Positions 1-51,295 of a stretch of DNA of 64,000 nucleotides are shown piece after piece. Both the position numbers and the translations under genes were made by a program. Within the stretch, counting starts at the first letter, position 1, and every line of letters begins with the position of its first letter. The DNA is from Candidatus Staskawiczbacteria bacterium RIFCSPHIGHO2_02_FULL_42_22 (GTDB lineage: Bacteria > Patescibacteriota > Minisyncoccia > Minisyncoccales > Staskawiczbacteraceae). Location: NCBI GenBank assembly GCA_001820175.1, contig MHOT01000010.1:8578-72577 (forward strand), read 5' to 3'. The notes under the pieces were generated by a model. The model made no database searches. It was given only the letters and a program-made list of their open reading frames with translations, and was not told the origin of the DNA.

Positions 1-338
1 AGGTGGCACAGGCGCATATCCTCGGCTTCAATAAGATAGATGGTGTTTTTTCCTCGTTCTTTGCCCTGGACATTGTCATGAAACGAATCAATGCCTTGCA
101 CAAATACCCCCTTAACTTCATATTCTCCCGGGTTTTCTATTAAAAATGGAGTCCCCTTAATAGCTTTGGTTTCGTTGTGGTCCGCATGTCCATGGCTTAC
201 CAGCAAAATGTCAGCCGAAAAATTCGGCATTTTAAGGCCTATCTCGCCAAAGGGATCAATGACCACATCAGCTGAATGATCTTTTCCGTTTGACAGTGAT
301 ATATGGAAGCAGGACTGCCCCGCCCAGGTTATTTTCAT
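1..338 (-). CDS. MBL-fold metal-dependent hydrolase (UPF0173-like); C-terminal part lies outside the window
   Basis: Not in ORF track because it runs off the window. Hand translation from ATG (complement of 336-338): MKITWAGQSCFHISLSNGKDHSADVVIDPFGEIGLKMPNFSADILLVSHGHADHNETKAIKG...; HxHxDH metallo-beta-lactamase motif. Confidence 0.7.
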   Translation of the reverse strand, partial: MKITWAGQSCFHISLSNGKDHSADVVIDPFGEIGLKMPNFSADILLVSHGHADHNETKAIKGTPFLIENPGEYEVKGVFVQGIDSFHDNVQGKERGKNTIYLIEAEDMRLCH

Positions 339-344
339 AGAACA

Positions 345-420
345 TGGAACATGGAACATGGAACAAACGGAACATATTCGTTTGTTATGTGTTCTATGTT
401 ATGTGTTATATTCAACCATT
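345..420. repeat. Word-stutter hairpin (tandem GGAACAT words facing ATGTT-type words; apex aacaaacg/cgtttgtt)
   Basis: Read directly: gaacatggaacatggaacatggaacaaacggaacatattcgtttgttatgtgttctatgttatgtgtt. Confidence 0.6.
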
Positions 421-538
421 TTATCACACCATTTTTTATTATTCAACCATCATACATTTCTATCTATCCACACTTCCATGGTCATCCATCAAAGAAAGAC
501 ACGGGGGCGATAGAAGAAATACCGCTGAAAATTCCATT

Positions 539-574
539 TTCCACAAATTTTCACGATCGTGGAAATTTGTGGAA
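539..574. promoter_or_regulatory. 36-bp near-perfect palindrome centred on CGATCG, each arm carrying a TTTTCCACA word
   Basis: ttccacaaattttcacgatcgtggaaatttgtggaa; one mismatch between arms. Confidence 0.5.
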
Positions 575-585
575 AATAAATTTAA

Positions 586-619
586 ATAAAAAAATCCCGC
601 CGTGATTACACGAGCGGGA
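586..619 (-). terminator. Rho-independent terminator downstream of ORF 631-1242
   Basis: Stem tcccgc/gcggga with an A-run on + strand (T-run on - strand) directly after the stop. Confidence 0.65.
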
Positions 620-630
620 ATGGATCGGCC

Positions 631-1242
631 TTACTGGCCCCGCGGGGTGCCGATACCCTGTTTTTTTATAATATGCGAAATGAGCGCCGGCGTGGGGAAA
701 AAGACGTTGAACGCCCCTTGACCGTCGTGTTCAGGCACAGCATTGAGCAGGTTCCTGTCCAAAAGCTCACGGATGCCGGTAACCACATAGTCCGGCCCGA
801 ACAAGTAAATTCCACTAAAGGGAATGACTTCCGGTTGGTCAAGATCCGACTGACTGAATTTCGGTTTTTCGGCAAACCATCCCCAGATACCGAATGTCAG
901 AACATTCAGCCAGAACCAACGGTCCATCTGATTACCCCAGACGCGCCGACGGCCGGCATGCTTTTCCTTTGAAGCCGAAAATATTTCACAATCTCGCTTC
1001 ATCATTTCAACCAAAACTCTCCCGCTGACCCCGACCCACTGGTCGAGGTGTTGGGAAAACGAAATGATGCGGGCGGCGGCTTCCTCCTGTTCCGATCGCC
1101 CCAGCACACCGGCAATAAAGTAGTGTCCGATACGGATCTGGCGCGGAGTGCAGGGCATTTCTTCTTCTGCTAAATATAGACCGTCTTGAACACAACGCAT
1201 CGCAGTGTCTCCAAAAGGTACTGATTGGCAAAACGTCTCCAC
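631..1242 (-). CDS. Hypothetical protein (GC-rich orphan)
   Basis: 203-aa ORF with own terminator; no motif I recognise; GC visibly higher than neighbours. Confidence 0.5.
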   Translation of the reverse strand: METFCQSVPFGDTAMRCVQDGLYLAEEEMPCTPRQIRIGHYFIAGVLGRSEQEEAAARIISFSQHLDQWVGVSGRVLVEMMKRDCEIFSASKEKHAGRRRVWGNQMDRWFWLNVLTFGIWGWFAEKPKFSQSDLDQPEVIPFSGIYLFGPDYVVTGIRELLDRNLLNAVPEHDGQGAFNVFFPTPALISHIIKKQGIGTPRGQ

Positions 1243-1373
1243 ATTACTACATCAATTATTATTTGTCAATGTTGCACGATGCCAAAATTTAAGGTAGTAT
1301 TTTTGGTATTACTATTAATTAGCCAGCTGGGGAAATTTTAAAAATATTTTCCGCCTGGCTACATATATTTATT

Positions 1374-2525
1374 ATGAAAGAAGCAGTTTCCAAGCAAAAA
1401 ACGAGCGACTCGGTAATTCCCCCATCTATCGGTTCTATTGTAGAGGGAAAATTAATCGCCCGCGACCGGTCTTCTATTTTTATTGATTTAGGGCCGCAAG
1501 GAACCGGCATCATTTTTGGCCGAGAATTTTATGAGGTAAAAGATGCTATTAAAAACCTACAAATTGGCGATATTATCCACGCCAAAATCGTAGAACTGGA
1601 AAACGAAGAGGGCTACCGCGAATTATCACTGCAAGATGCCACTAAAGATATTAACTGGCAGAAATTACGCGAAATGAAAGATAATCAGGAAATTATCAAG
1701 GTGAAAATCACCGGGGTTAACAAAGGAGGACTGCTTACCAACATCAATAATATTGCGGCTTTCTTGCCGGTATCACAGTTATCTCCAGAAAATTATCCTA
1801 GGGTAACCGATGCCGATAAAGCCAAAATATTAAAAGAACTGCAAAAATTTATTGGCAAAACCTTGGAAGTAAAAGTGCTGGATTTGTTGGCTGAAGAAAA
1901 TAAGCTGATTTTGTCGGAAAAAGCCAAGACCGAACAGGCCATCAAGCAAATGCTCAATAACTACAAAAAGGGAGACGTGGTGGATGGAAAAATTACTGGC
2001 ATTGCTGATTTTGGAGTGTTTATTCGTTTTCCGCTCGCAGCGGAAAACGCGCAGAACAATGCGGAAATTAACCCTCCTTCGCCAGATGCTTCGGCGGGGC
2101 AAGGCGCGGAAAAACGCGGAAAAGACGATAGCATTGAAGGATTAATCCATATTTCTGAATTGGACTGGCAACTAGTTCAAAACCCCTCTGAAATTGTAAA
2201 AGTGGGAGAAATAATAAAAGCGCAGATTATTGATATTCACAATAACCAAGTATTTTTGTCGCTTAAATCGCTAAAAGAAAATCCTTGGGAAAAAATTGAA
2301 AAAGAGCATAAAAAGGGAGACATAATTAAGGGAAAAGTCATCAGTTTTAGCCCATTTGGCGCGTTTGTGGAAGTGATGCCAAAAATCCGGGGCCTCTGCC
2401 ACATTTCCGAATTTGCCAGCCAGAAGGAAATGGAGGACTCGCTAAAACCCGGCGAAATGTACGATTTTGAAATTTTGTTGATTGAACCAAAAGAGCACCG
2501 AATGAGCTTGAAATTGGTAAAATAA
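1374..2525 (+). CDS. rpsA: 30S ribosomal protein S1 (multi S1-domain)
   Basis: Repeated S1 RNA-binding domain signatures (G.IV.G.V..I....IFIDLG, GVFIRF...EGLIHISEL, FGAFVEV...GLCHISEF). Confidence 0.9.
   Translation: MKEAVSKQKTSDSVIPPSIGSIVEGKLIARDRSSIFIDLGPQGTGIIFGREFYEVKDAIKNLQIGDIIHAKIVELENEEGYRELSLQDATKDINWQKLREMKDNQEIIKVKITGVNKGGLLTNINNIAAFLPVSQLSPENYPRVTDADKAKILKELQKFIGKTLEVKVLDLLAEENKLILSEKAKTEQAIKQMLNNYKKGDVVDGKITGIADFGVFIRFPLAAENAQNNAEINPPSPDASAGQGAEKRGKDDSIEGLIHISELDWQLVQNPSEIVKVGEIIKAQIIDIHNNQVFLSLKSLKENPWEKIEKEHKKGDIIKGKVISFSPFGAFVEVMPKIRGLCHISEFASQKEMEDSLKPGEMYDFEILLIEPKEHRMSLKLVK
2031..2124 (+). repeat. In-frame repeat insertion inside an S1 domain (partner copy at 12258-12323)
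   Basis: Encodes AENAQNNAEINPPSPDASAGQGAEKRGKD between FIRFP and IEGLIHISEL; shares atgcggaaattaaccct and gcgcggaaa..cgcggaaaa with the copy in the MutY-like gene. Confidence 0.6.
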
Positions 2526-2578
2526 ATTTTAAGCCACCCACCAAAAAATCCGCTTCTGCGGATTTTTTGGTATAATGA
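2428..2578 (+). repeat. Direct repeat, left copy (authentic rpsA 3' end + terminator + TGGTATAAT)
   Basis: About 150 nt repeated at 3880-4029 with roughly 9 in 10 positions identical by eye. Confidence 0.85.
2543..2568 (+). terminator. rpsA terminator hairpin
   Basis: aaaaaatccgc ttct gcggatttttt. Confidence 0.75.
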
Positions 2579-2585
2579 TACATAT

Positions 2586-3446
2586 ATGAAAAATATTGTA
2601 ATTCCAAAGACAAATAACTCATCTCTTATTGCTCAATTAGGATCTTTTTATAATGCTTTTAAAAATATTACATTTGGAGAAAAAGTAATTATTGATGCAT
2701 CCTCATTGAATTGGGCACATCCTCTTTTAATATTACCTATAAGTGCTTATATTAACGAAACTCGAAGCGAAATCAATACGGATGACTGTAATGGTAATAT
2801 AAAATCATATTTAGAAATGATAAAATTCCCTAAGGGTGTGAATTCTATATCTTCTTTTCAAAAACAAATACAAAAATATAAGACATATATACCCATAAGC
2901 GTCTTACATAAGGAAAGCACTGTTGATAGGGAACGACTAGAATCACTATTTTCTGAAAAAATTTATGAAATTCTCGGGAATATACCAGGAGCCGAAAATG
3001 CAGTATTTTACCCAATATCAGAACTCATAACTAATATTTTTGAACATAGTAAAAAGGAACAGGGTTTTATTTTTGGACAATTTTATCCCAGTAAGAAATA
3101 TTTAGATGTCTGCATCGTTGATTGTGGCAGAGGATTTGCTAAGGCATACAAAGAAGAGCAAAACTTAGAATTATCAGATCAAGAAGCAATAATAGAAGCA
3201 ATGAAGGGTAATTCTATCAAAAAAGACAAAGAAAGAGGTTATGGTTTAAGAACTTCGAAAAACGTGATATGTAAGGCATTAAAGGGTGGAGGATTTATTC
3301 TTATTTCCGGTTCTTCTGCCCTTGTTTCTACAGAACAAGGGGAAAGATTAGTCTATTTAAAAGATTTCTATTGGCAAGGGACTATTATCGCCTATAGAAT
3401 ACCAAAACCCAATGGCCCCATTGACATATCTCCATACATAGAATAA
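2586..3446 (+). CDS. GHKL-type ATPase / RsbW-SpoIIAB-like serine kinase fold protein
   Basis: N-box ELITNIFEHS, G1 box DCGRGF, G2 box GYGLRTS in canonical order; about 27% GC over the first 60 nt. Confidence 0.65.
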   Translation: MKNIVIPKTNNSSLIAQLGSFYNAFKNITFGEKVIIDASSLNWAHPLLILPISAYINETRSEINTDDCNGNIKSYLEMIKFPKGVNSISSFQKQIQKYKTYIPISVLHKESTVDRERLESLFSEKIYEILGNIPGAENAVFYPISELITNIFEHSKKEQGFIFGQFYPSKKYLDVCIVDCGRGFAKAYKEEQNLELSDQEAIIEAMKGNSIKKDKERGYGLRTSKNVICKALKGGGFILISGSSALVSTEQGERLVYLKDFYWQGTIIAYRIPKPNGPIDISPYIE

Positions 3447-3489
3447 CAATATCTATTGTGGTATAATAACATTGAGCAATTAAAGATCT

Positions 3490-3858
3490 ATGAAAAATAA
3501 AAGCCATAATTTCATCACAATTAAGATAAGTAAATTATTGGCTCCTATTATAAGTTCTCGTGATGTAGCCAATGTATTGGAGGATAAAATAAATGAAACT
3601 GATACAACATCAGTAGTTTTGGATTTTAATAATATTAAATTCGTTTCTCGTTCAGCAACTCACTCATTGCTTGTATTGAAAGAAAAAATTGAAACCAATA
3701 TACCTAGGAGAGAATTGTCTTTCATTAATGCTAATAATGATGTTAAAGAAATGATTCGTACCGTAGCATCTAATAGGGCTTTCCCAAAAAAAGAAACGCC
3801 GGAATTTAATCCAGAAAAAACCGACATCGCTTCGCTATTAGAAGAAGCTGCCTTCTAA
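3490..3858 (+). CDS. STAS-like domain protein (DUF4325-like)
   Basis: SRDVANVLEDKI....VVLDFNNIKFVSRSATHSLL pattern typical of STAS-like DUF4325; sits directly after the GHKL gene. Confidence 0.55.
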   Translation: MKNKSHNFITIKISKLLAPIISSRDVANVLEDKINETDTTSVVLDFNNIKFVSRSATHSLLVLKEKIETNIPRRELSFINANNDVKEMIRTVASNRAFPKKETPEFNPEKTDIASLLEEAAF

Positions 3859-3879
3859 TTTTAGGACATTTTATTAAGG

Positions 3880-4029
3880 AGATGGAAGAATCCCTAAAAC
3901 CCGGCGAAACGTACGACTTTGAAATTTTATTGATTGAACCCAAAGAACACCGAATGAGCTTGAAATTGGTAAAATAATGCAATCCGCGCACCCAAAAAAT
4001 CCGCTTCTGCGGATTTTTTGGTATAATGA
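3880..4029 (+). repeat. Direct repeat, right copy (pseudo rpsA 3' end EMEESLKPGETYDFEILLIEPKEHRMSLKLVK* + terminator + TGGTATAAT)
   Basis: Aligns to 2428-2578; no upstream S1 coding sequence, so it is a gene-end remnant. Confidence 0.85.
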
Positions 4030-4033
4030 AACC

Positions 4034-4438
4034 ATGGAAAAAGAAATTATGTATACGGCAAAATTTGTAAGAGATCCTGAATTATTATTAAGAAAATTTC
4101 CACCAAAACATGTTCGTATATTTGCCCATCACTCCACAATTGCTTTTAAACCTAAAAATGTCGATGGCATAGAAATAGGTAGAAAATCGTTGATGAAAAT
4201 CATAGGCCGGGCTTACGATGAAAAAGGCGATGCCCTACTAGTTGAAAATCCCATATCAGAAAATGAATATCCCCACATTACTCTTTCCTGTGCCGATAAC
4301 GTGCCCCCTTTTTACTCAAATGAATTATTGAAAAAAGCTAGTGAAAATAACACGATAGAACATTTTGATGCACCGGAAGAAATTGAAGTGATTGAAGGAT
4401 ATTTCGATGGCAAAAACGAGGTTATTGAAAAAAAATAG
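4034..4438 (+). CDS. Possible 2H-phosphoesterase-like protein
   Basis: Two H-x-T/S-x motifs (AHHSTIAF and PHITLSC) spaced as in 2H/LigT-type enzymes. I start at ATG 4034 because the tracked ORF start (3977) lies in the duplicated terminator. Confidence 0.4.
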   Translation: MEKEIMYTAKFVRDPELLLRKFPPKHVRIFAHHSTIAFKPKNVDGIEIGRKSLMKIIGRAYDEKGDALLVENPISENEYPHITLSCADNVPPFYSNELLKKASENNTIEHFDAPEEIEVIEGYFDGKNEVIEKK

Positions 4439-4448
4439 TAAAATAATA

Positions 4449-4480
4449 CCCCGCCGATTCAACCGAATCAGCGGGGTTTT
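4449..4480. terminator. Bidirectional terminator hairpin between convergent genes
   Basis: ccccgc cgattcaaccgaatca gcgggg tttt. Confidence 0.6.
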
Positions 4481-4482
4481 GG

Positions 4483-5361
4483 TTACGAAACCTTCGAAAC
4501 ATTCACTATCTTGGGCGGGCTCCCATGCTTTTTGCCAAAGGAAACCGCTTCAAAGTAGGAGATCACGTCTCCCCTATGAAGTTGGACGATTCCTTCGGCA
4601 TCCGGCGGTTCCATGACGTCGATGCCATGAACCCATGTACTGGAACCGTCGTGGAGCTTGACAATGCCCTGGCCGGTTTGACCGCCAAAGCACGTATACC
4701 AATCCACGACTGCGAAACCACGATCGGGCACCGGCAGTGGCGGATCCAGTTCTTCGGCCACTCTTCTCCATGGCTGAAGTTCAGCGTCTTGCATAAGTTG
4801 CTGAAAATCAGGCACTTCCAAGATCATTTTACGGGATTCAAACGAACCCCACGTATGGTCTTTGGGCCGGCCGACGACACGAACGCCATCCTGGAAAAGC
4901 TTTCCCTTCCAGCGGTACTCACCGTGGAGCCGCCAGGTCTTGCCGTCGTCGTGGGTGATGATCCCTACTTGGAAAAGCCGGATTGAACCATCATGGTCCA
5001 AATGCCAGCAATCCAAACGGTTGGGATTGTCGCTATGCCAGTTGGTCCAGACGTTTTTTCCCGCGCGCTTGACCTGAATGGGATCGTGCATCATGCATAG
5101 ATCATACCGATCCACCAAATCAGGGAAGTCAGTCAAAGCGTTTTTACTGTAACCTCCCTTTTCCTGGCCGACGTTTTTCTGGACGACGACGGTTCTGCCA
5201 TGCTTTGGCAGGAGCACCGCCAGGTAGAACCCTGTGGGGTTGACACCCCTGGGGACCGAAATGATTCCCTGGTCGCTGACTTCAAGATACGTTTCGATCT
5301 TGTTGGCCAGCGAAACCGAAGCCCGAATATTTGGATCAGTAAAAAAGCGAATCGTTTCCAT
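4483..5361 (-). CDS. Hypothetical protein (GC-rich orphan)
   Basis: 292-aa ORF; about 57% GC in a 60-nt sample; no recognised motif. Confidence 0.5.
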   Translation of the reverse strand: METIRFFTDPNIRASVSLANKIETYLEVSDQGIISVPRGVNPTGFYLAVLLPKHGRTVVVQKNVGQEKGGYSKNALTDFPDLVDRYDLCMMHDPIQVKRAGKNVWTNWHSDNPNRLDCWHLDHDGSIRLFQVGIITHDDGKTWRLHGEYRWKGKLFQDGVRVVGRPKDHTWGSFESRKMILEVPDFQQLMQDAELQPWRRVAEELDPPLPVPDRGFAVVDWYTCFGGQTGQGIVKLHDGSSTWVHGIDVMEPPDAEGIVQLHRGDVISYFEAVSFGKKHGSPPKIVNVSKVS

Positions 5362-5484
5362 GGGAAACTCCTTAATGGCAAAAACTTTTTTGCAACAAGC
5401 AGAAAAGAATTTACCAAGCCAATTGTCAACGTGCTTTCATCCCCGCATTTGCATTTTTAAAAATGCAAACGCGGAGATGAAATA

Positions 5485-6453
5485 TTATGCCATATATCTG
5501 GGCAGGGCCTCTCTCATTGCCTCCTTAATTCTTGTAATAGAAATTTTAGTGGGCTCAACCCCTTTGGGATTGGCACCGCCATTCAGCAAGGAATTAGTTG
5601 CCCTATCATAGTACCATTCGGAAACACTTTCCAATTTCCCTGGTTTCATTAACTCAATTGGCGGATATTCTATATTTTTTCCCTTTAATTGCAACTCTTC
5701 GTCTCGTAAATAGGCCGCCAGCCATCGTAAATCAACTCTTTTAAATTGCTTAGTTAAAATATTAGTATAACCCGAAGTTTTTCTTTGGCACACCACATCG
5801 GCTTTTAACCCTATCGATGACTTAAGCCATCCGGGCATGCTTACATTATCGGATTCCAGTGCCACGATTTTTAATTTTTTCCCGCGTTGTTTTACCTCAA
5901 AAATTTCTGCCTTTCCAGCCCGTAAATATTTTTCGAATTCTTGAGGTAATTCGCTGGTTCTTTTTCTTTCTTCTAAGTAATGGGCCTCAAGCAACGGAAA
6001 AACGATATCAAGGATTCTTGCCGGACTTTCCGTGGTTTTATTTAAAGAAGAAATTAAACCCGATAATCCAAACGTTCTATCAAGCTGATCAGTAGAAATA
6101 GTCCCGACACCGTGCTTATCGTCTCGCTCAGCATATGCCAGCAATTTTAAAATGGCTGGATCTTCCATAACACCCACGTCCAAAGACACCAATTCAGAAA
6201 GTATTTTTCCTTTTTGGTGATGATCAAGATCGCCTCCGCCTACGTCCAAGCAGATAATACCCTTTTCTTTCAAAGAATCACTGGTTTCACCTTCTTGCAA
6301 TGCCTGACGTATTTCAATTTCCGCATTTTCAATTCCTGGATACTTGGTGCTACCAAATTTTTTTAGCAGGAAAATGCCCAAAATGGTATCGGGGTGTAGG
6401 GAGCTTGGAATAATGATTTTATAGTAATTGGGAACTGTCATATACTTTAACAT
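5485..6453 (-). CDS. MYG1/UPF0160-like metal-dependent hydrolase (tentative)
   Basis: SSLHPDTILGIFLL and CLDVGGGDLDHHQKG resemble the HxDE and DVGG...DHHQ motifs of the MYG1 family. Confidence 0.4.
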   Translation of the reverse strand: MLKYMTVPNYYKIIIPSSLHPDTILGIFLLKKFGSTKYPGIENAEIEIRQALQEGETSDSLKEKGIICLDVGGGDLDHHQKGKILSELVSLDVGVMEDPAILKLLAYAERDDKHGVGTISTDQLDRTFGLSGLISSLNKTTESPARILDIVFPLLEAHYLEERKRTSELPQEFEKYLRAGKAEIFEVKQRGKKLKIVALESDNVSMPGWLKSSIGLKADVVCQRKTSGYTNILTKQFKRVDLRWLAAYLRDEELQLKGKNIEYPPIELMKPGKLESVSEWYYDRATNSLLNGGANPKGVEPTKISITRIKEAMREALPRYMA

Positions 6454-6525
6454 ACTTTATCAAATAAAATTACTTTTGTCAATACCAAATTATTTGACAA
6501 TACCACTAATTAATTATACTATCAA

Positions 6526-7098
6526 ATGCAAAGAGGCGTTCTTTTACAATTTTTCTGGGGGCAAAAAGTGTCTAACAATATTGTTTTTCTGGGTGACTGG
6601 TCCAACCTCAAAAGAGGAGAACTGGACAATGATTACAAGCCAGCAGAGTATGATAAAGAGGCCGGTTTTAAGCGATTGAAAGATTTTCTTTTTGATATTG
6701 CTACGCCAACATTGTGTAGCATTTACACTCCGTTGCACGACATCTATGGCCATTTTGAGTTTTTGCGGGATCAGGGGTTTACCATTGTATTGTGCCCGAT
6801 AGTATGGTCAACCTCAACTGATACCACTGATCAAAAACTTACCATGGACGCTTTAAATTTAATAGAAAATTACGATATGCAATATCTTTGTTTGGGTAGC
6901 GGAGATGGTCACTTCAAGGATGTGCTCCAAGCCGCCAAAGCCAAAGGCATCAAAGTAGCGGTGGTATATGGAAGTGAACGATCGCTATCTGCAGAAATTC
7001 GGGCTATGGTAGACACATATCCCGAAGGCCATCCAAAAAAAGGGCAGAAAATGCTCCATATGTTTTCTCCCACCCGGCAGCCTTTATTGACAAGGTAG
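6526..7098 (+). CDS. NYN-domain (LabA/DUF88-like) putative ribonuclease
   Basis: TDQKLTMDAL and LGSGDGHFKDVLQAAKAKGIKVAVV motifs; true start may be GTG 6568. Confidence 0.6.
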   Translation: MQRGVLLQFFWGQKVSNNIVFLGDWSNLKRGELDNDYKPAEYDKEAGFKRLKDFLFDIATPTLCSIYTPLHDIYGHFEFLRDQGFTIVLCPIVWSTSTDTTDQKLTMDALNLIENYDMQYLCLGSGDGHFKDVLQAAKAKGIKVAVVYGSERSLSAEIRAMVDTYPEGHPKKGQKMLHMFSPTRQPLLTR

Positions 7099-7155
7099 CG
7101 AAATCGATACTCGCTGCTTTTTTTTGAAAAATATTACAAAAAATTGCACAGGGGA

Positions 7156-7184
7156 TTGACAAGTTATAAAATAAATCATAGAGT
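7156..7184 (+). promoter_or_regulatory. Sigma70-like promoter of the 590-aa orphan
   Basis: TTGACA, 17 nt spacer, TAGAGT. Confidence 0.5.
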
Positions 7185-7210
7185 GTACTTGGTTCTTTGA
7201 AATACTGTAA

Positions 7211-8983
7211 GTGGCTTGGCGCTACCTACAGTTTACACTGTTTTTTAGAAAGCGAAGGTGCTTGATGTCCAAACCGAAAATCCTGGCTGGTGGCCTGAAC
7301 AGCAACAATGGCAACATCCAGGAGGCCTATGACAGGGCCACCTCTGCTGGGGGTAACGCTCCAGTCAACGAGACCGTCTCTCCGCCGAACGGAAGCGTCG
7401 CTCCTACTCAAGGGGAGAGAACTGACACCCAACGCAAAAAAGGGGGTGCTCGCATCAGCGAGGCCCCGGTCTTCCAGATGGTGATTCCCAATATCTCCGT
7501 CACGGAGGATGGGAAAGCGGCATTCCAACTGGCCGCAGAGAAAATCCGACTCCGGGCCGAAGCCCGCGAGGAAGGGAAGCGACAGAAAAAGGCCTTCGTC
7601 CATCGTTTCATCGAATGGATGAATGCCCCTCTCCTGCTCGTCCTCGACATCCAGAACGAATGCAGGCGTCTCCGGGAGGAATACCCGAATCAGACCGCAG
7701 ACCAGGAGTTCCTGAACGAGGTCTACGAAGAGCACGAGAAGGATGGGAGGATGGTGACACTGACGTACCAGCAGCAGTGTGACGAAATCAACGGGGAGAT
7801 CGAGAGGAACGTCAACTGCGGCGACCCGATCATCGCTCTGCCGATCGTGGTAGCGCGAGAGGTCTTCTGGGTTTCGTTCCAGGTCCTGTCAATGAAGGAA
7901 CTGGTCCACAAGGTCCAGATGCTGGAAAAGGATGAAATCCTTCGGGATGATCCTCTGGGCAAGATCCGTCTGTCCGGGAAGCGGCGATTCTCTCTTTCCA
8001 AACGTCTGGAAGTACTAGACAAGGAGACCCAAGCAGAGCTGACTCTCGCCATCAACACAGCCATCCAGAACAAGCTTCTGGATATCCGGAAGAAGGCCGA
8101 ACAGAACAACAAACAGAAGATCGCCGATTGGCTCGCTCTCAAGGTGAGGCCGCTGGACATCTTCGACAATCACTGCGAGGGCAATGCAGATGGGAGCTAC
8201 TATCTGCCGCTCGCCGACAACGGTCATGTGCTCGTGGAGTTCACTCCCGAGTACCTTCACATCAAGGATGCTGTGGGTAGAGATGATCTGGTGGCTACGA
8301 TCCGAAGCCTCGAGGAGCACTACGAGATTCCGGTTCTCGTGGAGCGCCAGAGCATCAAAAACTCTTCGGGCCAACTCCGTCAAAAGAGCAACGCGCCCAA
8401 TTTCGGAGCGCCGAAGGCAGTCCACAGGGACGACCATCGGGACTGGGCGTCTGTCATGGAATTCACTTGGCACACGACCCGCGACGCGATCGAGAGGGTC
8501 CTGGGATACTCCATGAAGAACCCCAACGCCGCCCAGGACAACCTGTCGGATCCGGAGGCCAGTCGGCTCCTGGAACCGGTCAAGGTCAGGGACAAGCCGT
8601 CACCAGTCAAGGGAGGAGTGGCCGGTACTCCAGTGGTGGTCAAGAAAGACATGATCCAGACGCTCAAGGCCCACGAATTCCATGTCGCGTGCCTCGACGG
8701 ACGATACTCGGTAGAGATACCGGAGTGGAACTGGAGATTCGATGACAGTACTGAGGAAACTGTCAAGAATCTTCGAATGACCTTCGAACGGTTCGAAGAC
8801 AGTGACGGTGAGACCCGACTCAGGATAGTCGGATTCTCCCCGGAACACGAGAACTTCCTGAAAAAGGCCGGCTGCCTGAACAAGGACGGCTACCTGGACA
8901 AACCCAGGAAGTACGGCGGACGACTGAAGTTCTTTTCCAACCTACTGACTGCCGACTATAAACGGCACTGCGTAGGAAGATAA
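7211..8983 (+). CDS. Hypothetical large protein (GC-rich orphan); likely start ATG 7265
   Basis: 590-aa ORF; about 58% GC over 120 nt counted; several long antisense ORFs are the usual high-GC artefact. Confidence 0.55.
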   Translation: MAWRYLQFTLFFRKRRCLMSKPKILAGGLNSNNGNIQEAYDRATSAGGNAPVNETVSPPNGSVAPTQGERTDTQRKKGGARISEAPVFQMVIPNISVTEDGKAAFQLAAEKIRLRAEAREEGKRQKKAFVHRFIEWMNAPLLLVLDIQNECRRLREEYPNQTADQEFLNEVYEEHEKDGRMVTLTYQQQCDEINGEIERNVNCGDPIIALPIVVAREVFWVSFQVLSMKELVHKVQMLEKDEILRDDPLGKIRLSGKRRFSLSKRLEVLDKETQAELTLAINTAIQNKLLDIRKKAEQNNKQKIADWLALKVRPLDIFDNHCEGNADGSYYLPLADNGHVLVEFTPEYLHIKDAVGRDDLVATIRSLEEHYEIPVLVERQSIKNSSGQLRQKSNAPNFGAPKAVHRDDHRDWASVMEFTWHTTRDAIERVLGYSMKNPNAAQDNLSDPEASRLLEPVKVRDKPSPVKGGVAGTPVVVKKDMIQTLKAHEFHVACLDGRYSVEIPEWNWRFDDSTEETVKNLRMTFERFEDSDGETRLRIVGFSPEHENFLKKAGCLNKDGYLDKPRKYGGRLKFFSNLLTADYKRHCVGR

Positions 8984-8989
8984 CCCAAA

Positions 8990-9040
8990 GAGCGTTGCGT
9001 GCGCACACACAAGTGTGGCATGCAACGCTCTCTTTTTTTT
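8990..9040 (+). terminator. Terminator of the 590-aa orphan
   Basis: gagcgttgc...gcaacgctc stem followed by T8 run. Confidence 0.7.
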
Positions 9041-9210
9041 GCAAAAAATCGCCGAAACTCCTTCTTGAAATATATTTTTTAACGTGATACGATAATGCTA
9101 ATTCAAAATTTAAAAATCAAAATTCAAAGTTAATGCATCGCCTCCGGCGGTTATTTTTAATTTTACACTGCCATTTTGCATTTTGAGATTTGCATTTTGC
9201 ATTTATCATT

Positions 9211-11094
9211 ATGAAATTAAACCCTTTACTTAAAAATTTTATTTTCGTCATATTAATTCTGCTGGTCATCGGCGGTGTCTTTAGCTTGCTGTATTTACCG
9301 GCCGAAAAACAAAACCAAATATCCATTTCGCAACTAGTCCAAGACATTAATGCCGAAAAGGTGAAAAAAATCGATGTTTCCGGTGATGCCATTAAAATAA
9401 CCTATACCGATGATAAAACCGCCCAGTCCATGAAAGAATCGAATTCGGTCCTAGCCGATGTATTGACTAATTTGGGCGCCGACTCCGCCAAGCTGCAAAA
9501 AGTGGAAATAAGCGCTTCAACGGTTCAAGAAAGCGTTTGGTCATGGTTGCTTCCCGCACTACTGTATGGCATTTTGCCGCTGGTGTTAATTGGGTTTTTC
9601 TTGTGGACCATGATGCGACAGGCACGATCCGGAGCTGGCCAAGTATTTGACTTTACCCGATCAAAAGCTAGAATTTTTGGCGCGGATCCTAACAACAAAG
9701 AAAAAATCACCTTTAAAGATGTGGCGGGACTCAAAGAAGCTAAAGAAGAGTTAATGGAAATTGTGGACTTTTTAAAGTTCCCAAAAAAATACTTGGCCAT
9801 GGGAGCAAAGGTACCAAGGGGTGTTTTATTATTGGGTAGCAGCGGCGTTGGAAAAACAATGCTTGCAAGAGCAGTCGCCGGTGAAGCCAACGTGCCATTT
9901 TTTAGTATTTCCGGATCTGAATTCGTAGAAATGTTTGTGGGGGTAGGTTCGGCCAGAGTACGGGATTTGTTTTCCACCGCTAAAAAGGCCTCTCCTTCCA
10001 TTATTTTCATTGACGAACTAGATGCCATCGGCCGGCACCGCGGAGCCGGCATTGGCGGAGGCCACGACGAACGCGAACAAACCCTCAACATGATTTTAGT
10101 GGAAATGGACGGCTTCCAGAAAGATACGGGCGTTTTGGTGTTTGCAGCAACGAATCGCGGAGATATTTTAGACCCTGCGCTTTTGCGACCCGGGCGGTTT
10201 GACCGAAAAATTATTTTAGATAATCCTGATGTGCACGATCGCGAAGCTATTTTACAAATTCATTCAAAAGAAAAACCACTGGCTTCAAACATTAACTTTA
10301 AAGAAATTGCCGAACGCACACCTGGTTTTTCTGGTGCTGATTTGGCTAATGTAGCCAATGAAGCAGCATTACTAGCCGCGCGGCAAAATAAAACCCAGGT
10401 ATTCCAGGATGACTTTTTGGAAGCGATTGAAAAAGTGCTTTTGGGACCTGAAAGAAAAAGCCATATTTTATCCAAAAAAGAAAAAGAAATTACGGCTTAT
10501 CACGAAGCCGGTCACGCGCTGGTTTCTAGCAGCATTCCCGGAACCGACCCTATCAGAAAAATATCTATTATATCTCGAGGCATGGCGGGCGGATACACAT
10601 TTCAAGTGCCATCGGAAGACAATAAAATGCGCACCAAAACCCAATTTTTGGCTGAAATTGCAACGCTTATGGGAGGGTTTAGCGCCGAACGCCTGGTGTT
10701 TGGAGAAATGAGCACGGGGGCCAGCAATGACTTGGGGAAAGCGTCGCACCTGGCCCGCAAAATTGTCAAAGAATGGGGCATGTCTTCCCTGGGACCCATT
10801 TCATTTGGCGACAAAGAAGAAATGGTATTTTTGGGCCGGGAAATTTCAGAACAAAGAAATTACTCGGAAGCCGTGGCCGAAAAAATTGACAAAGAAATCG
10901 AAACCATTTTACGCAGCGCCGAAAAACGGGCGACTGAAATTGTGGCCAAGCGCCGTGATATGCTGGAAAAAATCGCCAAAATATTAGTGGAAAAAGAAAC
11001 GATAGAACGAGAAGAGTTTGAGAAGATTATCGGAAACGGAAAATCCCAAATTCCAAATCACAAATCCCAAATAAACTCCAAATCCAAAAAATAA
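9211..11094 (+). CDS. ftsH: ATP-dependent zinc metalloprotease FtsH
   Basis: Walker A GSSGVGKT, SRH region, HEAGHA zinc motif. ATG 9211 preferred over TTG 9190. C-terminal tail KSQIPNHKSQINSKSKK is encoded by word repeats. Confidence 0.95.
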   Translation: MKLNPLLKNFIFVILILLVIGGVFSLLYLPAEKQNQISISQLVQDINAEKVKKIDVSGDAIKITYTDDKTAQSMKESNSVLADVLTNLGADSAKLQKVEISASTVQESVWSWLLPALLYGILPLVLIGFFLWTMMRQARSGAGQVFDFTRSKARIFGADPNNKEKITFKDVAGLKEAKEELMEIVDFLKFPKKYLAMGAKVPRGVLLLGSSGVGKTMLARAVAGEANVPFFSISGSEFVEMFVGVGSARVRDLFSTAKKASPSIIFIDELDAIGRHRGAGIGGGHDEREQTLNMILVEMDGFQKDTGVLVFAATNRGDILDPALLRPGRFDRKIILDNPDVHDREAILQIHSKEKPLASNINFKEIAERTPGFSGADLANVANEAALLAARQNKTQVFQDDFLEAIEKVLLGPERKSHILSKKEKEITAYHEAGHALVSSSIPGTDPIRKISIISRGMAGGYTFQVPSEDNKMRTKTQFLAEIATLMGGFSAERLVFGEMSTGASNDLGKASHLARKIVKEWGMSSLGPISFGDKEEMVFLGREISEQRNYSEAVAEKIDKEIETILRSAEKRATEIVAKRRDMLEKIAKILVEKETIEREEFEKIIGNGKSQIPNHKSQINSKSKK

Positions 11095-11101
11095 AACATT
11101 C

Positions 11102-11209
11102 GTCATTGCGAGCCCGCAGGCGTGGCAATCTCCGTCGTTATGAGTGGAGATTGCTTCGCAGGGTGCAGTACTGTACCCTGCTTCGTCGCTGTGGCTCCTC
11201 GCAATGACG
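11102..11209. repeat. GTCATTGCGAG nested-palindrome repeat, copy R1
   Basis: cgtcattgcgag...gattgcttcg...ctcgcaatgacg. Confidence 0.8.
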
Positions 11210-11220
11210 AAAGTGAAAAT

Positions 11221-11292
11221 GCTCCCATAGCTCAACGGCAGAGCACCTCGCTTATATCGAGTAGGTTCCAGGTTCGAATCCTGGTGGGAGCA
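11221..11292 (+). tRNA. tRNA-Ile, anticodon UAU
   Basis: Hand fold: acceptor GCTCCCA/TGGGAGC, D GCTC/GAGC, anticodon stem CCTCG/CGAGT (one C-U pair), loop CTTATAT, T arm CCAGG-TTCGAAT-CCTGG; no encoded CCA. Confidence 0.7.
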
Positions 11293-11318
11293 CTATAACA
11301 ATTTTATCATTAATTATC

Positions 11319-11786
11319 ATGCCAGGAGAGAATCATAAAAACTTACCGGAGGAAAATCCACCAAACTCTGAATCGAGAATTGATGAATATGGACAAATAG
11401 TCCAAGAAGAAGAAAAGTTAGAAAAAAAAGATGAAAATCCGATTTTTAGATTATTGAACTTACGCGAAATAGTTCTTATTCAAAGCATACACCCAAACTA
11501 TGTAAAACAACCTGCCGACGCCTTATATTGGAGACCAGGGAGATTGGAACAAAATAAGAAAATTTTTGAGGAAATGAAAACGATAGCAAACCATTCTGGA
11601 ATTAATGCATTGACTCATCCTGCTACAGGCGAAAACATAGTTTTTAAGGATTTATTTAATCTTCTTGAAAAATCAATTGCATATTCAGAAGATATTAATC
11701 GGCAATTAATAACAGAGCCATCCGAACAAGCTGAAGGAAATACTGATCAAAAAGCCGCTCTAAGAAAAAAATTACTGGAAAAATAA
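11319..11786 (+). CDS. Hypothetical protein
   Basis: 155-aa ORF, no recognised motif. Confidence 0.4.
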   Translation: MPGENHKNLPEENPPNSESRIDEYGQIVQEEEKLEKKDENPIFRLLNLREIVLIQSIHPNYVKQPADALYWRPGRLEQNKKIFEEMKTIANHSGINALTHPATGENIVFKDLFNLLEKSIAYSEDINRQLITEPSEQAEGNTDQKAALRKKLLEK

Positions 11787-11788
11787 TA

Positions 11789-12676
11789 ATGCAAAAAGAA
11801 CGCATTAAAAAATTCCAGAAACTTGTTTGGGATTTTTATCAAAAAAACAAACGTGAGTTTGCCTGGCGCAAAACCCGTGATCCTTACAAAATCCTGGTTT
11901 CCGAAATCATGCTCCAGCAAACCCAGGCCGACAGGGTGATCAGATTCTATGAAAAGTGGATTAACCGCTTCCCTAACTTCAAGGTCCTTGCAAGTGCCAA
12001 ATTTAGCGAAATATACCCCTTCTGGCAGGGACTGGGTTACAACAGGCGCGCGCTTGCACTCAAGCGCGCGGCGGAAAAATCCGTCAAAGAATTTGACGGA
12101 AAACTACCGGCCGAAATTGAAAAACTGGAAGAATTTCCCGGCATTGGGCCATACACTGCCCGTGCCATCAGCATTTTTTCTTTTAATACACCTGTTGCTT
12201 GCATTGAAACGAATATTCGTCGGGTATTTATTCATCATTTTTTCGCTGAAAAAATATCGCGGAAAGATGCGGAAATTAACCCTTCGGCTCCGCTCAGGGC
12301 GAGCGCGGAAACGCGCGGAAAAAAGATAAACGACGAGCAGATTTTAGAAATTGCACAGCGGGCTTTGCCAGCTGGCAAAGCCCGTCAATGGCACTGGGCC
12401 TTAATGGACTACGGCGCTTATTTAAAGTCCACTGTGCCCAATCCCAACCGCCGCCATAAAAACTACAACGTCCAATCAAAATTCGAGGGCTCGTTACGCC
12501 AAATCCGCGGCACTGCGTTAAAGATACTTTCGGCCAAAAAAATGGACTGTGACGAGTTAGTTGAAAGATTAAAAAAAGCAACGTTGCAAACCAAGGAAAG
12601 AATCAAAAAAGTAATTTTAGCGCTAGAAAAAGAAGGGTTAATAAAGTCCCGTAAGAAAATTTATTCTTTAAAATAA
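11789..12676 (+). CDS. HhH-GPD DNA glycosylase, MutY/EndoIII-like
   Basis: DPYKILVSEIMLQQTQ, GLGYNRRA, FPGIGPYTARAI helix-hairpin-helix; no C-terminal Cys cluster visible. Confidence 0.75.
   Translation: MQKERIKKFQKLVWDFYQKNKREFAWRKTRDPYKILVSEIMLQQTQADRVIRFYEKWINRFPNFKVLASAKFSEIYPFWQGLGYNRRALALKRAAEKSVKEFDGKLPAEIEKLEEFPGIGPYTARAISIFSFNTPVACIETNIRRVFIHHFFAEKISRKDAEINPSAPLRASAETRGKKINDEQILEIAQRALPAGKARQWHWALMDYGAYLKSTVPNPNRRHKNYNVQSKFEGSLRQIRGTALKILSAKKMDCDELVERLKKATLQTKERIKKVILALEKEGLIKSRKKIYSLK
12258..12323 (+). repeat. In-frame repeat insertion (partner of 2031-2124)
   Basis: Encodes RKDAEINPSAPLRASAETRGKK; shares a 17-nt identical string atgcggaaattaaccct with the rpsA copy. Confidence 0.6.
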
Positions 12677-27602: not shown

Positions 27603-27673
27603 AGGCCCGGATGGGAATTGCACCCATGTACACGGTTTTGCAGACCGTTCTCTGGCTACTTGAGTACCGGGCC
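27603..27673 (-). tRNA. tRNA-Cys, anticodon GCA
   Basis: Acceptor GGCCCGG/CCGGGCC, stem ACGGT/ACCGT, loop CTGCAAA, T loop TGCAATT. Confidence 0.8.
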
Positions 27674-28438
27674 ATACATTTTTAATGTTTCGAGTATGTT
27701 GTTATCAATTTTTCGATTACGATTTTGAAAATACTTTATAAAATTATCTCTTTTTCTCTTAAGAAACAAAGTATCTCCTAATTGATTGCCATAAAAAACT
27801 TGAAACCATCGCATGCTTTCTGAGGTTGAGTATTTTAGACGATACGCTCGACTACCAAAATACATCTTTCCACTTCTAAATCCCATACTTTCAAATTTAT
27901 TACGTAATCCTTCTAAGAATACTTTGCTGCCACTGGTAAAAATAACTGCTAGTCCCCTAGAAATTTCTTGGCCGTACTTTCCCTTTCCTTTCATAATATG
28001 CACACAACCATCTCCATCAAAATATCCTCTGACAAAATGACTTAAGCAATCCACGGGAATATCGTGGGGGAACTCAGTTATTAAAGATTTTCTAGGTGTT
28101 AAACCTAGCTTTAATAAATCTGCAAACATTTCTCGACTGCCAATCCTTAACCTAAAAGCTTCTCTACTTTTGTATGCTCCATTTAAATGGACGGCTATTC
28201 TCTCGGGCTTAATTTGGATCTTGTGATTCGAAGACAATGCTATCTTTATCTTTTCTATAATCTCCTTATCGGCACTATCAAAACTTACATATTGGGTTCT
28301 GGAAATAACTGAATCCATAATATTTCCATCCGCATACATAAATCCTAAAACATACGCCATTTCTGGTGTCCATGTTTTGAAAAAATCCTTATTGAATTGA
28401 TAACGATTGTGACCTCCGCGATGGTCTAAAGAAAACAT
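27656..28438 (-). CDS. LAGLIDADG homing endonuclease (two motifs), 3' end overlaps tRNA-Cys
   Basis: MAYVLGFMYADGNI and VRGYFDGDGCV; the last codons GPVLK* are the tRNA-Cys 5' acceptor/D-arm. Confidence 0.8.
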   Translation of the reverse strand: MFSLDHRGGHNRYQFNKDFFKTWTPEMAYVLGFMYADGNIMDSVISRTQYVSFDSADKEIIEKIKIALSSNHKIQIKPERIAVHLNGAYKSREAFRLRIGSREMFADLLKLGLTPRKSLITEFPHDIPVDCLSHFVRGYFDGDGCVHIMKGKGKYGQEISRGLAVIFTSGSKVFLEGLRNKFESMGFRSGKMYFGSRAYRLKYSTSESMRWFQVFYGNQLGDTLFLKRKRDNFIKYFQNRNRKIDNNILETLKMYGPVLK

Positions 28439-28929: not shown

Positions 28930-29289
28930 ATGAGTGAACTCAGGAAATGGATCGTAACGATCGGAATCGCACTGGGAGCGATTTTGATCTATGTGTTGTT
29001 CTGCACAACAATGATGTTGGCCCTAAGTTTTCATAAGGGTCACTGGATTATGGCGGCTTTGATGGTCGCTATAGCTGTGCTCATTGGATATCAGGGCTAC
29101 AGATACGCCATCATGACCTATGGGGCTTGGAGGGCAGAAAAATCGCCTGACTACGAGCCATGGATCTTCTACGCATCGTTCATTTTCGAAAAATGGTCGT
29201 GGCGGAAATGCCTCATGCGTGCCGTACTTTATAGCGCTGTGAGTGTGGTCATTATCGGACTTGCCGCTGCGCTGGTCATTTTCATGTAA
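28930..29289 (+). CDS. Small integral membrane protein (GC-rich orphan)
   Basis: 119 aa, about 4 hydrophobic spans; followed by hairpin gcccgagattggtatatctcgggctttt. Confidence 0.5.
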   Translation: MSELRKWIVTIGIALGAILIYVLFCTTMMLALSFHKGHWIMAALMVAIAVLIGYQGYRYAIMTYGAWRAEKSPDYEPWIFYASFIFEKWSWRKCLMRAVLYSAVSVVIIGLAAALVIFM

Positions 29290-31443: not shown

Positions 31444-31478
31444 AAAAAAGCCCCTCTCTGTTTTAGTACAGCGAGGGG
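31444..31478 (-). terminator. Rho-independent terminator of ORF 31494-31817
   Basis: cccctc...gagggg stem with T-run on the - strand. Confidence 0.7.
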
Positions 31479-31493
31479 TCTGCTGGAGTATGT

Positions 31494-31817
31494 CTAGAAC
31501 AATCCATAGTTTTCTTTCCATGTGGTAAGTGACTCACCATCAAGAACGGTAATAACATCCATCCGCCTTTTTTTAAGGACAATTAAGTATATTGGGTATG
31601 GCTTCCCATTGCTTTGAAGAGTTGCTTTTATAATTACCGTGGATCTTTTGGGGGATGGAAACTCTCGGGTAGCATTACGGACAAGACCACGTATCATTCG
31701 TCGAATTTCTTCATTGGTGAGATCGTCACCACCAAGGCACTGAAACCTCTCGCGAAACCTCATAACGGCGTGATCTGAGACAACAATTCCTCTCGGGTGT
31801 CGCGGAATACTTCTCAT
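31494..31817 (-). CDS. Hypothetical protein (GC-rich orphan)
   Basis: 107-aa ORF with own terminator; SDHAVMRFRER is faintly DUF4258-like, not asserted. Confidence 0.4.
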   Translation of the reverse strand: MRSIPRHPRGIVVSDHAVMRFRERFQCLGGDDLTNEEIRRMIRGLVRNATREFPSPKRSTVIIKATLQSNGKPYPIYLIVLKKRRMDVITVLDGESLTTWKENYGLF

Positions 31818-36866: not shown

Positions 36867-36935
36867 CCATTGACATTTGACTTTTGACTGACGAAAACGA
36901 GCAGCATTTGATAATTGACATTTGGCTTATGGCTT

Positions 36936-37310
36936 ATGAAAAAATTTAGATTCCGACAATTTCAAATCTATAAAGATGCCCTACAATTTCAAAAAGAATT
37001 AAAGAATTTGAGCCGGGAAAAATTTCCAAGGGAGGAGCAATTTTGTTTAACTTCTCAATTATGGCGCGCATTAGATTCTATTATTTTAAATATCGCGGAG
37101 GGCGCCGATAGAGGAACCGATAAAGACTTTGCGCATTTTTTAAATATTTCACATACCTCGCTAAATGAAGTTGTGGCTTGTTTGGACTTAGCAGTGAGTA
37201 ACAGTTATATTCCCGAAAATGAAAATAATATCTTCTTAATAAGAGCAGAGAATCTGGCAAATCAAATTACCGCCTTTAGAAGAAAATTATTAAAAGAACC
37301 CACTAAATAG
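36936..37310 (+). CDS. Four-helix-bundle protein (23S rRNA intervening-sequence protein family)
   Basis: F.IYKDAL.F......L.....FP.EE...LTSQL.RA..SI.LNIAEG...GTDKDF..FL.IS..SL.E. Confidence 0.75.
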   Translation: MKKFRFRQFQIYKDALQFQKELKNLSREKFPREEQFCLTSQLWRALDSIILNIAEGADRGTDKDFAHFLNISHTSLNEVVACLDLAVSNSYIPENENNIFLIRAENLANQITAFRRKLLKEPTK

Positions 37311-51200: not shown

Positions 51201-51252
51201 AGGCCAGCCGAGGCAAAGAAATGTTGCAACATTTCTTTGCCTCGGCTGGCCT
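51201..51252 (+). terminator. 24-bp perfect hairpin after the protease gene
   Basis: aggccagccgaggcaaagaaatgt tgca acatttctttgcctcggctggcct. Confidence 0.6.
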
Positions 51253-51295
51253 TTGCAAACCTTGGTGGCTCATTAACAATGAAAGAGGGTTAACT

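Follow-up and report, generated by a model that had tools for sequence, protein, structure and literature searches.

A probable long-lived hypervariable slot for GC-rich genes upstream of ftsH in Candidatus Staskawiczbacteria and its relatives

The sequence analyzed here (the window) is a 64,000-nucleotide stretch with a GC content of 41.2% from Candidatus Staskawiczbacteria, a Parcubacteria genome of the Candidate Phyla Radiation (CPR) that was assembled from aquifer metagenomes. Within the interval between rpsA and ftsH, a gene for a protein of 572 amino acids (aa) lies directly upstream of ftsH and next to a gene for an NYN-domain protein, and its base composition departs strongly from that of the surrounding genes. 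A public database entry, a hypothetical protein of Candidatus Staskawiczbacteria bacterium RIFCSPHIGHO2_02, has the same sequence as the 572-aa product. The position occupied by this gene is referred to below as the slot. Coordinates are collected in Table 1, and loci from other genomes are cited by their L numbers.

The 572-aa gene is accompanied by its own putative expression signals. The candidate promoter sits in an AT-rich spacer that separates the GC-rich coding sequence (CDS) from the NYN gene, and the CDS starts at ATG 7265 rather than GTG 7211; the former agrees with the public annotation, and inspection of the sequence revealed no Shine-Dalgarno-like element ahead of GTG 7211 comparable to the one ahead of the ATG. 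The intrinsic terminator was predicted to fold at −33.5 kcal/mol (z = −6.7), with none of 200 shuffled sequences folding as well. Judged from its sequence, positions 7156 to 9040 thus have the make-up of a complete monocistronic transcription unit, with promoter, ribosome-binding site, CDS, and terminator of its own. This promoter, as well as hairpin terminators at four genes, had been proposed in a first-pass annotation made from the letters alone, and these proposals held: the hairpins at 8989-9040, 4448-4477 (−), 595-619 (−), and approximately 31449-31481 (−; z = −2.7) all fold well. Near-consensus −35 boxes are also frequent in this region for ordinary genes. No repeats bracket the unit, whose neighbors are the NYN gene and ftsH (the nearest tRNA gene is at 11221), and no integrase, transposase, tRNA, or direct-repeat junction was found at 7156-9040. 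The gene was also considered as the target of a diversity-generating retroelement; this was rejected, given that no repeat pair with the 572-aa gene was present within positions 1-12000 and no reverse transcriptase domain among the neighboring open reading frames (ORFs) scanned. A search of Rfam returned no RNA family in the GC-rich regions.

Table 1. Features of the slot and of the rpsA-ftsH interval in the window, in local order (GC3, GC content at third codon positions)
Feature	Position	Strand	Remarks
gyrA, then metallo-beta-lactamase-fold gene	upstream of window start		
Terminator hairpin of 189-aa gene	595-619	−	−17.3 kcal/mol, z = −3.3
CDS, 189-aa protein (203 aa from GTG 1242)	631-1200	−	GC-rich, 52% GC (631-1242: 52.3% GC, GC3 0.57); third of the GC-rich class
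rpsA			next after the 189/203-aa ORF
GHKL ATPase and STAS-like pair	within 2586-3858		very low GC (31%)
2H-phosphoesterase-like ORF	between GHKL/STAS pair and 292-aa ORF		
Intrinsic terminator of 292-aa gene	4448-4477	−	13-bp stem, 8 GC pairs; −24.6 kcal/mol, z = −5.9
CDS, 292-aa beta-rich protein with predicted C-terminal cold-shock-like OB fold	4483-5361	−	GC-rich, 52.8% GC, GC3 0.60; second of the GC-rich class
CDS, 322-aa conserved partner	5485-6453	−	normal GC, 39.7%; directly upstream of 292-aa gene, same strand
NYN-domain (LabA-like, PIN-like nuclease) gene	6526-7098	+	normal GC, 42%; Pfam NYN, 5e-10
Putative sigma-70-type promoter, TTGACA-17 nt-TAGAGT	7156-7184	+	consensus scan, 10/12 matches
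Shine-Dalgarno-like GAAGGTG	7254-7260	+	4 nt ahead of ATG 7265; read from sequence
CDS, 572-aa protein	7265-8983	+	GC-rich, 56.3% GC, GC3 0.72; slot gene, main finding
Intrinsic terminator of 572-aa gene	8989-9040	+	interrupted 19-bp stem, then T run
ftsH	9211-11094	+	Pfam FtsH_ext, AAA, Peptidase_M41; right-hand anchor of slot

Composition was calculated for the 65 ORFs of the window, and three of these were strong GC outliers: the 572-aa gene (robust z of 3.8), the 292-aa gene, and the 189-aa gene in its longer 203-aa form. The 572-aa gene, at the coordinates to which the first-pass annotation referred, was the strongest deviant. It was the window's most extreme tetranucleotide outlier (L1 distance, z = 6.9), and its GC-normalized tetranucleotide signature correlated with that of the window at 0.09, against a mean of 0.72. 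The step is sharp, with GC of approximately 0.29-0.44 before 7265, 0.5-0.65 inside, and 0.28 after 9030, and it follows the CDS plus the terminator stem, from start codon to stem end. In contrast, the longer list of nine GC-rich ORFs drawn up in the first pass shrank to these three. The other six were not strong compositional outliers, and several fell in the range set by conserved backbone genes such as ftsH (43.8%) and a P-type ATPase gene (47.3%): 31494-31817 (43.5%), 45856-46218 (42.4%), 51221-51790 (47.5%), and 56088-57197 (44.1%). The ORFs at 28930-29289 (one of the nine) and 45437-45823 were outliers in codon choice, mildly so. The IS66-family DDE transposase gene at 31983-33332 (Pfam, 1e-34), which had been placed in the same class, has 45.6% GC and belongs to the upper backbone range.

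The deviation of the three GC-rich genes lies mostly in their two-fold codons and amino acid composition; at four-fold degenerate sites they stand at 0.62-0.69 and are not outliers. In the 572-aa gene, the C-ending share of two-fold codons is 0.76 (median 0.36), the G-ending share of Lys/Glu/Gln codons is 0.66 (vs. 0.245), ATC accounts for 0.86 of Ile codons (vs. 0.18), and CTG plus CTC for 0.86 of Leu codons (vs. 0.20). Its relative synonymous codon usage (RSCU) correlates with that of its own backbone at −0.19. Such a pattern might be expected of translational selection on a very highly expressed gene with optimal codons, and the near-consensus promoter, Shine-Dalgarno-like element, and strong terminator would fit this, as would C-ending pyrimidine codons that match GNN anticodons. 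The G-ending share of Lys/Glu/Gln codons is, however, 0.10 in rplS and 0.22 in rpsA as compared to 0.66 in the 572-aa gene, and the promoter is of a kind that ordinary genes of the region share; translational selection is therefore regarded as very improbable.

In order to place the slot in a wider setting, loci found by homology were compared together with 15 further species-representative genomes found by a degenerate ftsH DNA pattern. The start of the window's ftsH was set at ATG 9211 by alignment with homologues, and its product is 61-90% identical to FtsH of every compared locus. Members of the 572-aa family lie directly upstream of ftsH in all loci with context (the window, L012, L014, L018, L019, and L031), and a further member lies close to ftsH in L023. 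The NYN gene adjoins the 572-aa family gene upstream in five of the five loci that show that side (the window, L012, L014, L018, and L031), and it is absent where the slot holds another type of gene. At 14 loci, the GC content of the large slot gene exceeded that of ftsH by 6.4 to 16.9 points (mean 12.8, standard deviation 2.7), and its GC3 was higher by 24 points on average. For L020 the slot gene was taken to be the 273-aa gene one position further from ftsH, although the 211-aa gene adjacent to ftsH still exceeds it by 9 points. The slot genes resemble one another in codon usage (mean RSCU correlation 0.53) nearly as closely as the backbones do (0.60), whereas slot genes correlated with their own backbones at −0.24 to +0.18.

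The proteins encoded in the slot are much more diverged than those of its flanks. Between genomes, RpsA is 72-82% identical, FtsH mostly 57-80% (lowest 53%), the NYN protein 39-63%, and the 322-aa protein 59-70%, with flanking proteins at 57-87%; the 572-aa family stands at 24-39% and the 292-aa family at 46-51%. Loci L018 and L019 are close relatives: a stretch that starts in the T-tract of the slot-gene terminator and takes in the promoter and 5′ coding sequence of ftsH shows 88% DNA identity (97% in protein). No DNA similarity links the two slot genes, whose products are roughly 27% identical, and similarity resumes exactly at the terminator T-tract. This alignment indicates that the whole unit has been replaced at least once between close relatives and that the break fell at the terminator. 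Of the genomes closest to the window by ftsH (L030, 90%; L027, 87%; L022, 87%; L033, 86%), none has a slot gene that matches the 572-aa family, which is present in more distant genomes. As far as these alignments go, slot content does not follow backbone similarity. Mosaic links join some of the slot genes: one module of L023 recurs in the 572-aa family, a second one recurs in L033 and L027, and the slot gene of L008 resembles that of L032. Slot genes of different types failed to group when their profiles were compared. The window locus itself was identical in every copy available, with a few differences in L005 at contig ends, and clusters at 90% held no informative variants.

Recombination at the slot, evident from L018 and L019, raises GC-biased gene conversion as a source of the composition: the slot would be a recombination hotspot in which conversion tracts push GC3 up. 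C- and G-ending codons are both raised in the 572-aa gene, which suggests a general GC pressure rather than tRNA-matched optimization, and elevated GC3 has been reported for recombining genes in 11 of 14 bacterial groups, mainly via non-optimal GC-ending codons (Lassalle et al. 2015, PMC4450053). The GC step at the slot is, however, confined to the CDS, the flanks where crossovers would fall (the 5′ end of ftsH, the NYN gene, and the spacers) are not GC-enriched, and alleles with 27% identity cannot form the heteroduplex that conversion needs. An excess of 24 points in GC3 also seems well above what has been reported in bacteria. Conversion is accordingly considered an unlikely explanation.

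The product of the slot gene was characterized by sequence and structure searches. A word-indexed search of 5.8 billion proteins matched the 572-aa protein to itself only, and an exhaustive phmmer search of 1.84 billion representatives recovered 19 relatives at identities of 37% or less, which align along the whole 572-aa length and have a conserved C-terminal beta module in common. This module (residues ~470-545 in the window's protein; compare P0081, P0088, and L023) carries the motif ...FERF.D..G..RLR...FSPEH..FL...GCL; it is duplicated in some family members and matches 10 times in one 2516-aa protein recovered by the exhaustive search. No match was obtained in Pfam, PHROG, PADLOC, or NCBIfam, and the PDB, searched by sequence and by profile, yielded no significant match. 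An AlphaFold2 model built on the family alignment had a predicted local distance difference test score (pLDDT) of 77, with 264 residues at 90 or above, and Foldseek found no match to it in PDB or BFVD at E ≤ 0.001. No signal peptide or hydrophobic segment was evident on reading the sequence. From its homologues, the 572-aa protein belongs to a small family not described before, whose members were seen in Patescibacteria and on metagenome contigs without a taxonomic label and nowhere else. The 572-, 292-, and 189-aa proteins are unrelated to one another. The first-pass annotation had regarded such genes as orphans: none of the three matches Pfam, PHROG, PADLOC, or NCBIfam, but 19, 35, and 35 homologues, respectively, do exist. 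The constant pairing with the NYN gene points to a two-gene functional module, and the 572-aa protein is probably, though with low confidence, a cytoplasmic protein that partners the neighboring nuclease in a conflict-type module under rapid evolution, e.g., in defense or immunity. The NYN gene gave a weak PADLOC match to a candidate LabA-like NYN model (E = 9e-4); the three GC-rich proteins gave none.

Given that GC-rich DNA carries long chance ORFs, and that several antisense ORFs of 148-169 aa overlap the 572-aa gene, the slot gene could in principle be an artefact of chimeric assembly, of contamination, or of a chance ORF in GC-rich DNA that does not code. At least seven independent samples and pipelines, however, yielded the first 19 kb of the window with identical sequence, and a chimeric assembly of the locus is therefore excluded. 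The same pattern was present in 14 other genomes from different studies, and the 572-aa protein is conserved in sequence and has a confident predicted fold. The probability of an artefact is considered negligible.

The first-pass annotation had interpreted the GC-rich ORFs as repeated single-gene acquisitions from a donor of higher GC content, such as a host organism or a phage. In part this agrees with what was found: the genes are discrete, self-contained units with sharp borders, their own expression signals, and a foreign-looking composition, at least the unit in the ftsH slot is exchanged horizontally in its entirety, to judge from L018 and L019, and the 189-aa family occurs in unrelated contexts. 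The proposed donor and the recency of import did not stand. All named homologues of the three families belong to Patescibacteria (most homologues have no taxon label), and none lies on a uniformly GC-rich contig. No match was returned when the three GC-rich proteins were compared with 50,697 phage records (tblastn), when IMG/VR was scanned for motifs, or when BFVD was searched by structure, and a pattern drawn from a subset of the family alignment found nothing in genome, metagenome, and viral collections. No phage, viral, or high-GC donor of matching composition was thus found in a search that did not cover a plasmid collection, and homologues in organisms or elements of at least 50% GC are already largely absent. 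The NYN partner, co-inherited with the 572-aa family, has normal GC, and the mobility genes and junctions that import might leave are missing at the unit. Position and GC-richness alike are shared by 14 genomes in which the flanking proteins retain only 57-87% identity, which makes these genes long-term residents of a conserved slot. With flanks diverged to this degree, and synonymous sites saturated, the GC-richness cannot be an un-ameliorated relic. That each GC-rich ORF is a recent, independent acquisition from a higher-GC host or phage, not yet ameliorated, is therefore held to be about as unlikely as biased conversion.

In light of these comparisons, the slot is probably a long-lived hypervariable site between the NYN gene and ftsH that almost always holds one large, GC-rich, fast-evolving gene. 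GC-richness is likely to be a lasting, family-level trait held by a gene-specific force, and not the fading trace of a recent import, and there is a fairly good case that the slot gene changes by rapid divergence in place together with occasional replacement of the whole unit between related genomes. The enrichment in GC is more likely to reflect selection on mRNA or codons, or a recombination-linked GC bias, than foreign origin.

The course of events envisaged is as follows. The slot gene would diverge rapidly in place, and at times the whole unit of a related genome would take its place, the break falling at the terminator. Once DNA has been taken up, homologous recombination between conserved flanking sequences may bring the replacement about; genes for a type IV pilus and secretion ATPase apparatus are present in the window, and uptake of DNA by CPR bacteria is associated with machinery of this kind. 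Throughout, a gene-specific force would keep the slot genes GC-rich.

Several observations weigh against this account of the slot. The comparison contigs are mostly short metagenome fragments, replacement was seen in one close pair, and the L019 contig ends before the left-hand junction. Two of approximately 16 loci have no clear GC-rich slot gene (none in L026, an ambiguous case in L021). The slot genes of L008, L010, L020, and L022 have no demonstrable homology to the 572-aa family; for L008 and L010, BLASTP, hidden Markov model profiles, and hhalign all failed to demonstrate any. To judge from these searches, a single family diverging in place describes only part of the slot-gene set. Slot-gene GC tracks backbone GC weakly (r = 0.56, p = 0.04, from non-independent points), and slot-gene GC3 does not track the backbone (r = 0.29, not significant). 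We infer the holding force, and a common external reservoir, such as an unsampled CPR plasmid or virus, would give the same codon usage. Lastly, no family, defense-system, or structural match backs the function proposed for the 572-aa protein.

Two further properties of the slot genes bear on what the gene-specific force might be. Across 12 pooled loci, A/U runs of at least 5 nt occurred at 12.8 per kb in slot genes compared to 100.7 in backbone genes (approximately eightfold fewer), and UA-containing trinucleotides (TAG, ATA, TAA, TAT, and TTA) were, after normalization for composition, roughly twice as depleted in slot genes as in backbone genes. These exploratory figures are compatible with selection on mRNA stability or nuclease resistance, and equally with a by-product of codon usage. 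One speculative and rather unlikely reading is that a second codon and mRNA usage, GC-ending and UA-poor, is kept for fast-evolving conflict genes, such that their mRNAs would remain stable and translatable under a partner nuclease or under a phage-attack shutdown of A/U-ending-codon translation. Candidate partners would be the adjacent NYN RNase and, elsewhere in the interval, HD and 2H enzymes, and ACA-less mRNAs that escape MazF would be an analogue for nuclease-resistant slot mRNAs. If true, a second codon usage would make GC-richness a functional, selected feature of the module rather than a historical trace.

The 292-aa gene obeys the same rule at a second position of the rpsA-ftsH interval. 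Its protein has 35 homologues at 41-51% identity, and the family is present in this interval in L008, L010, L014, and L032, where its genes have 51-53% GC against 36-44% in the flanks. The AlphaFold2 model is of high confidence (pLDDT 95.3, predicted template modeling score 0.91), and Foldseek matched approximately 76 residues of its C-terminal part to CspB-type cold-shock proteins (probability 1.00, template modeling score on the target 0.72-0.83, root-mean-square deviation 1.9-3.6). A profile search against PDB cold-shock proteins placed the match at residues 218-284, below threshold (E = 0.09-1), and Pfam CSD gave no hit. From the predicted structure, the 292-aa protein is probably a nucleic-acid-binding protein with an oligonucleotide/oligosaccharide-binding (OB) fold. 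Its five-stranded OB-fold barrel at approximately residues 218-284 superposes on the CspB type, but unlike cold-shock proteins it has roughly 215 additional residues of beta-rich domains.

Orthologues of the neighboring 322-aa gene adjoin the 292-aa family in L008, L010, and L014, and in L032 a single gene separates the two. Searches of family databases and the PDB returned no match to the 322-aa protein, and a resemblance to MYG1/DHH proteins, which had been considered, was dropped as no search result backed it. The 322-aa family exists in two compositional states, a normal-GC version and a divergent GC-rich version (45-55%) that is roughly 30% identical to the first (L012:1217-2140, L018:1159-2190, and a 396-aa ORF in L030); here the more diverged form is thus also the GC-rich one. 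Between the 322-aa gene and the 292-aa gene, the spacer contains a perfect-centered inverted repeat of 24 + 24 nt (5435-5482, 92% complementary), which could be a terminator or operator parting the normal-GC from the GC-rich gene.

For the 189-aa gene, the start is probably ATG 1200, as in the public annotation; its 35 homologues (36-57% identity) are mostly 187-188 aa long. A homologue lies between recR and dnaB in L017 and another inside a polysaccharide locus in L016, and these are GC-rich in their settings (48.6 vs. 32-34% and 51.8 vs. 37-45%), while the L020 copy is not (39.5%). Its varied genomic contexts suggest that the 189-aa gene is a mobile member of the GC-rich compositional class. 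Across relatives, the 572-aa and 292-aa families thus recur in synteny in the rpsA-ftsH interval, and the 189-aa family does not keep to one place.

Other features of the region were recorded. The 3′ end of rpsA with its terminator and a promoter (approximately 158 bp) is duplicated at 2424-2581 and 3876-4032 (89-98% identity), and the two copies flank the pair of genes for a GHKL-type ATPase (a weak DrmA-like PADLOC match) and a STAS-like protein. This pair is absent from the rpsA-ftsH interval of relatives and therefore looks like a recent insertion that made or used the long duplication. The ORF at 3977-4438 is over-extended into the rpsA-end repeat, its L032 homologue having 131 aa. Just upstream of the window start (L001:1-1545), gyrA carries an intein (1255-aa product, Intein_splicing domain); in the relatives L008, L010, and L014 it is intein-free and encodes 832-870 aa. 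Downstream of ftsH, a tRNA-Ile gene at 11221-11293 has the anticodon TAT, an uncommon way of reading AUA in bacteria. A free-standing LAGLIDADG-domain ORF (27656-28438, −) lies beside a tRNA cluster, and an ORF of the 23S-rRNA-intervening-sequence-protein family (36915-37310, +) lies inside the type IV pilus operon.

Known systems resemble the slot in part. Recent horizontal acquisitions are usually AT-rich, and under the amelioration concept islands of atypical composition are recognized by deviant GC, codon, and tetranucleotide signatures, sharp borders, patchiness relative to the backbone, and exchange, all of which the slot has in common with them. The slot genes differ in that they are GC-rich in an AT-rich genome, come without mobility genes, tRNA target, or repeat junctions, have yielded no donor in the searches made, and keep position and composition constant in relatives diverged past synonymous saturation. 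Replacement-type flexible islands, such as O-antigen and capsule loci, are alike in their conserved flanks, in divergent or unrelated alleles at one site, and in exchange of the whole unit. In the slot, by contrast, the unit is a single gene for an apparently cytoplasmic protein and not a multigene cluster for a surface structure, the genes keep a distinct codon usage in common, and the 572-aa family is paired with a nuclease gene. Bacterial ORFans are typically short, AT-rich, and fast-evolving; the slot and other GC-rich genes share their narrow taxonomic range, lack of annotated domains, and rapid divergence, but slot genes run to 520-575 aa, are rich in GC, have confident predicted folds, and keep their synteny throughout the clade. 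The GC3 elevation ascribed to biased gene conversion (PMC4450053) is alike in the direction of its effect and in the excess of non-optimal GC-ending codons, and unlike in that enrichment at the slot does not reach beyond the CDS and that heteroduplex could not form between alleles so diverged.

Compositional deviation is routinely taken as a sign of recent horizontal transfer, and for this locus such a reading is mistaken or at best incomplete: one slot keeps a deviant, GC-rich codon usage throughout a CPR clade, although its genes diverge or are replaced faster than anything nearby. Caution is therefore advised in composition-based calls of transfer, as well as in discarding such stretches as contamination during the curation of CPR metagenomes. 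At least three new CPR-restricted protein families have been defined, one with a predicted cold-shock-like fold and one always paired with an NYN nuclease, and the rpsA-ftsH interval offers a compact locus in which to separate the forces on base composition, namely mRNA selection, biased conversion, and a hidden mobile reservoir. The literature searched contains no account of such a pattern in CPR genomes. The pattern comes closest to hypervariable loci of the replacement type and to islands of atypical composition, and what is new here is the inverted polarity, the distinct codon usage held clade-wide, the single-gene units, and the constant pairing of the 572-aa family with a nuclease.

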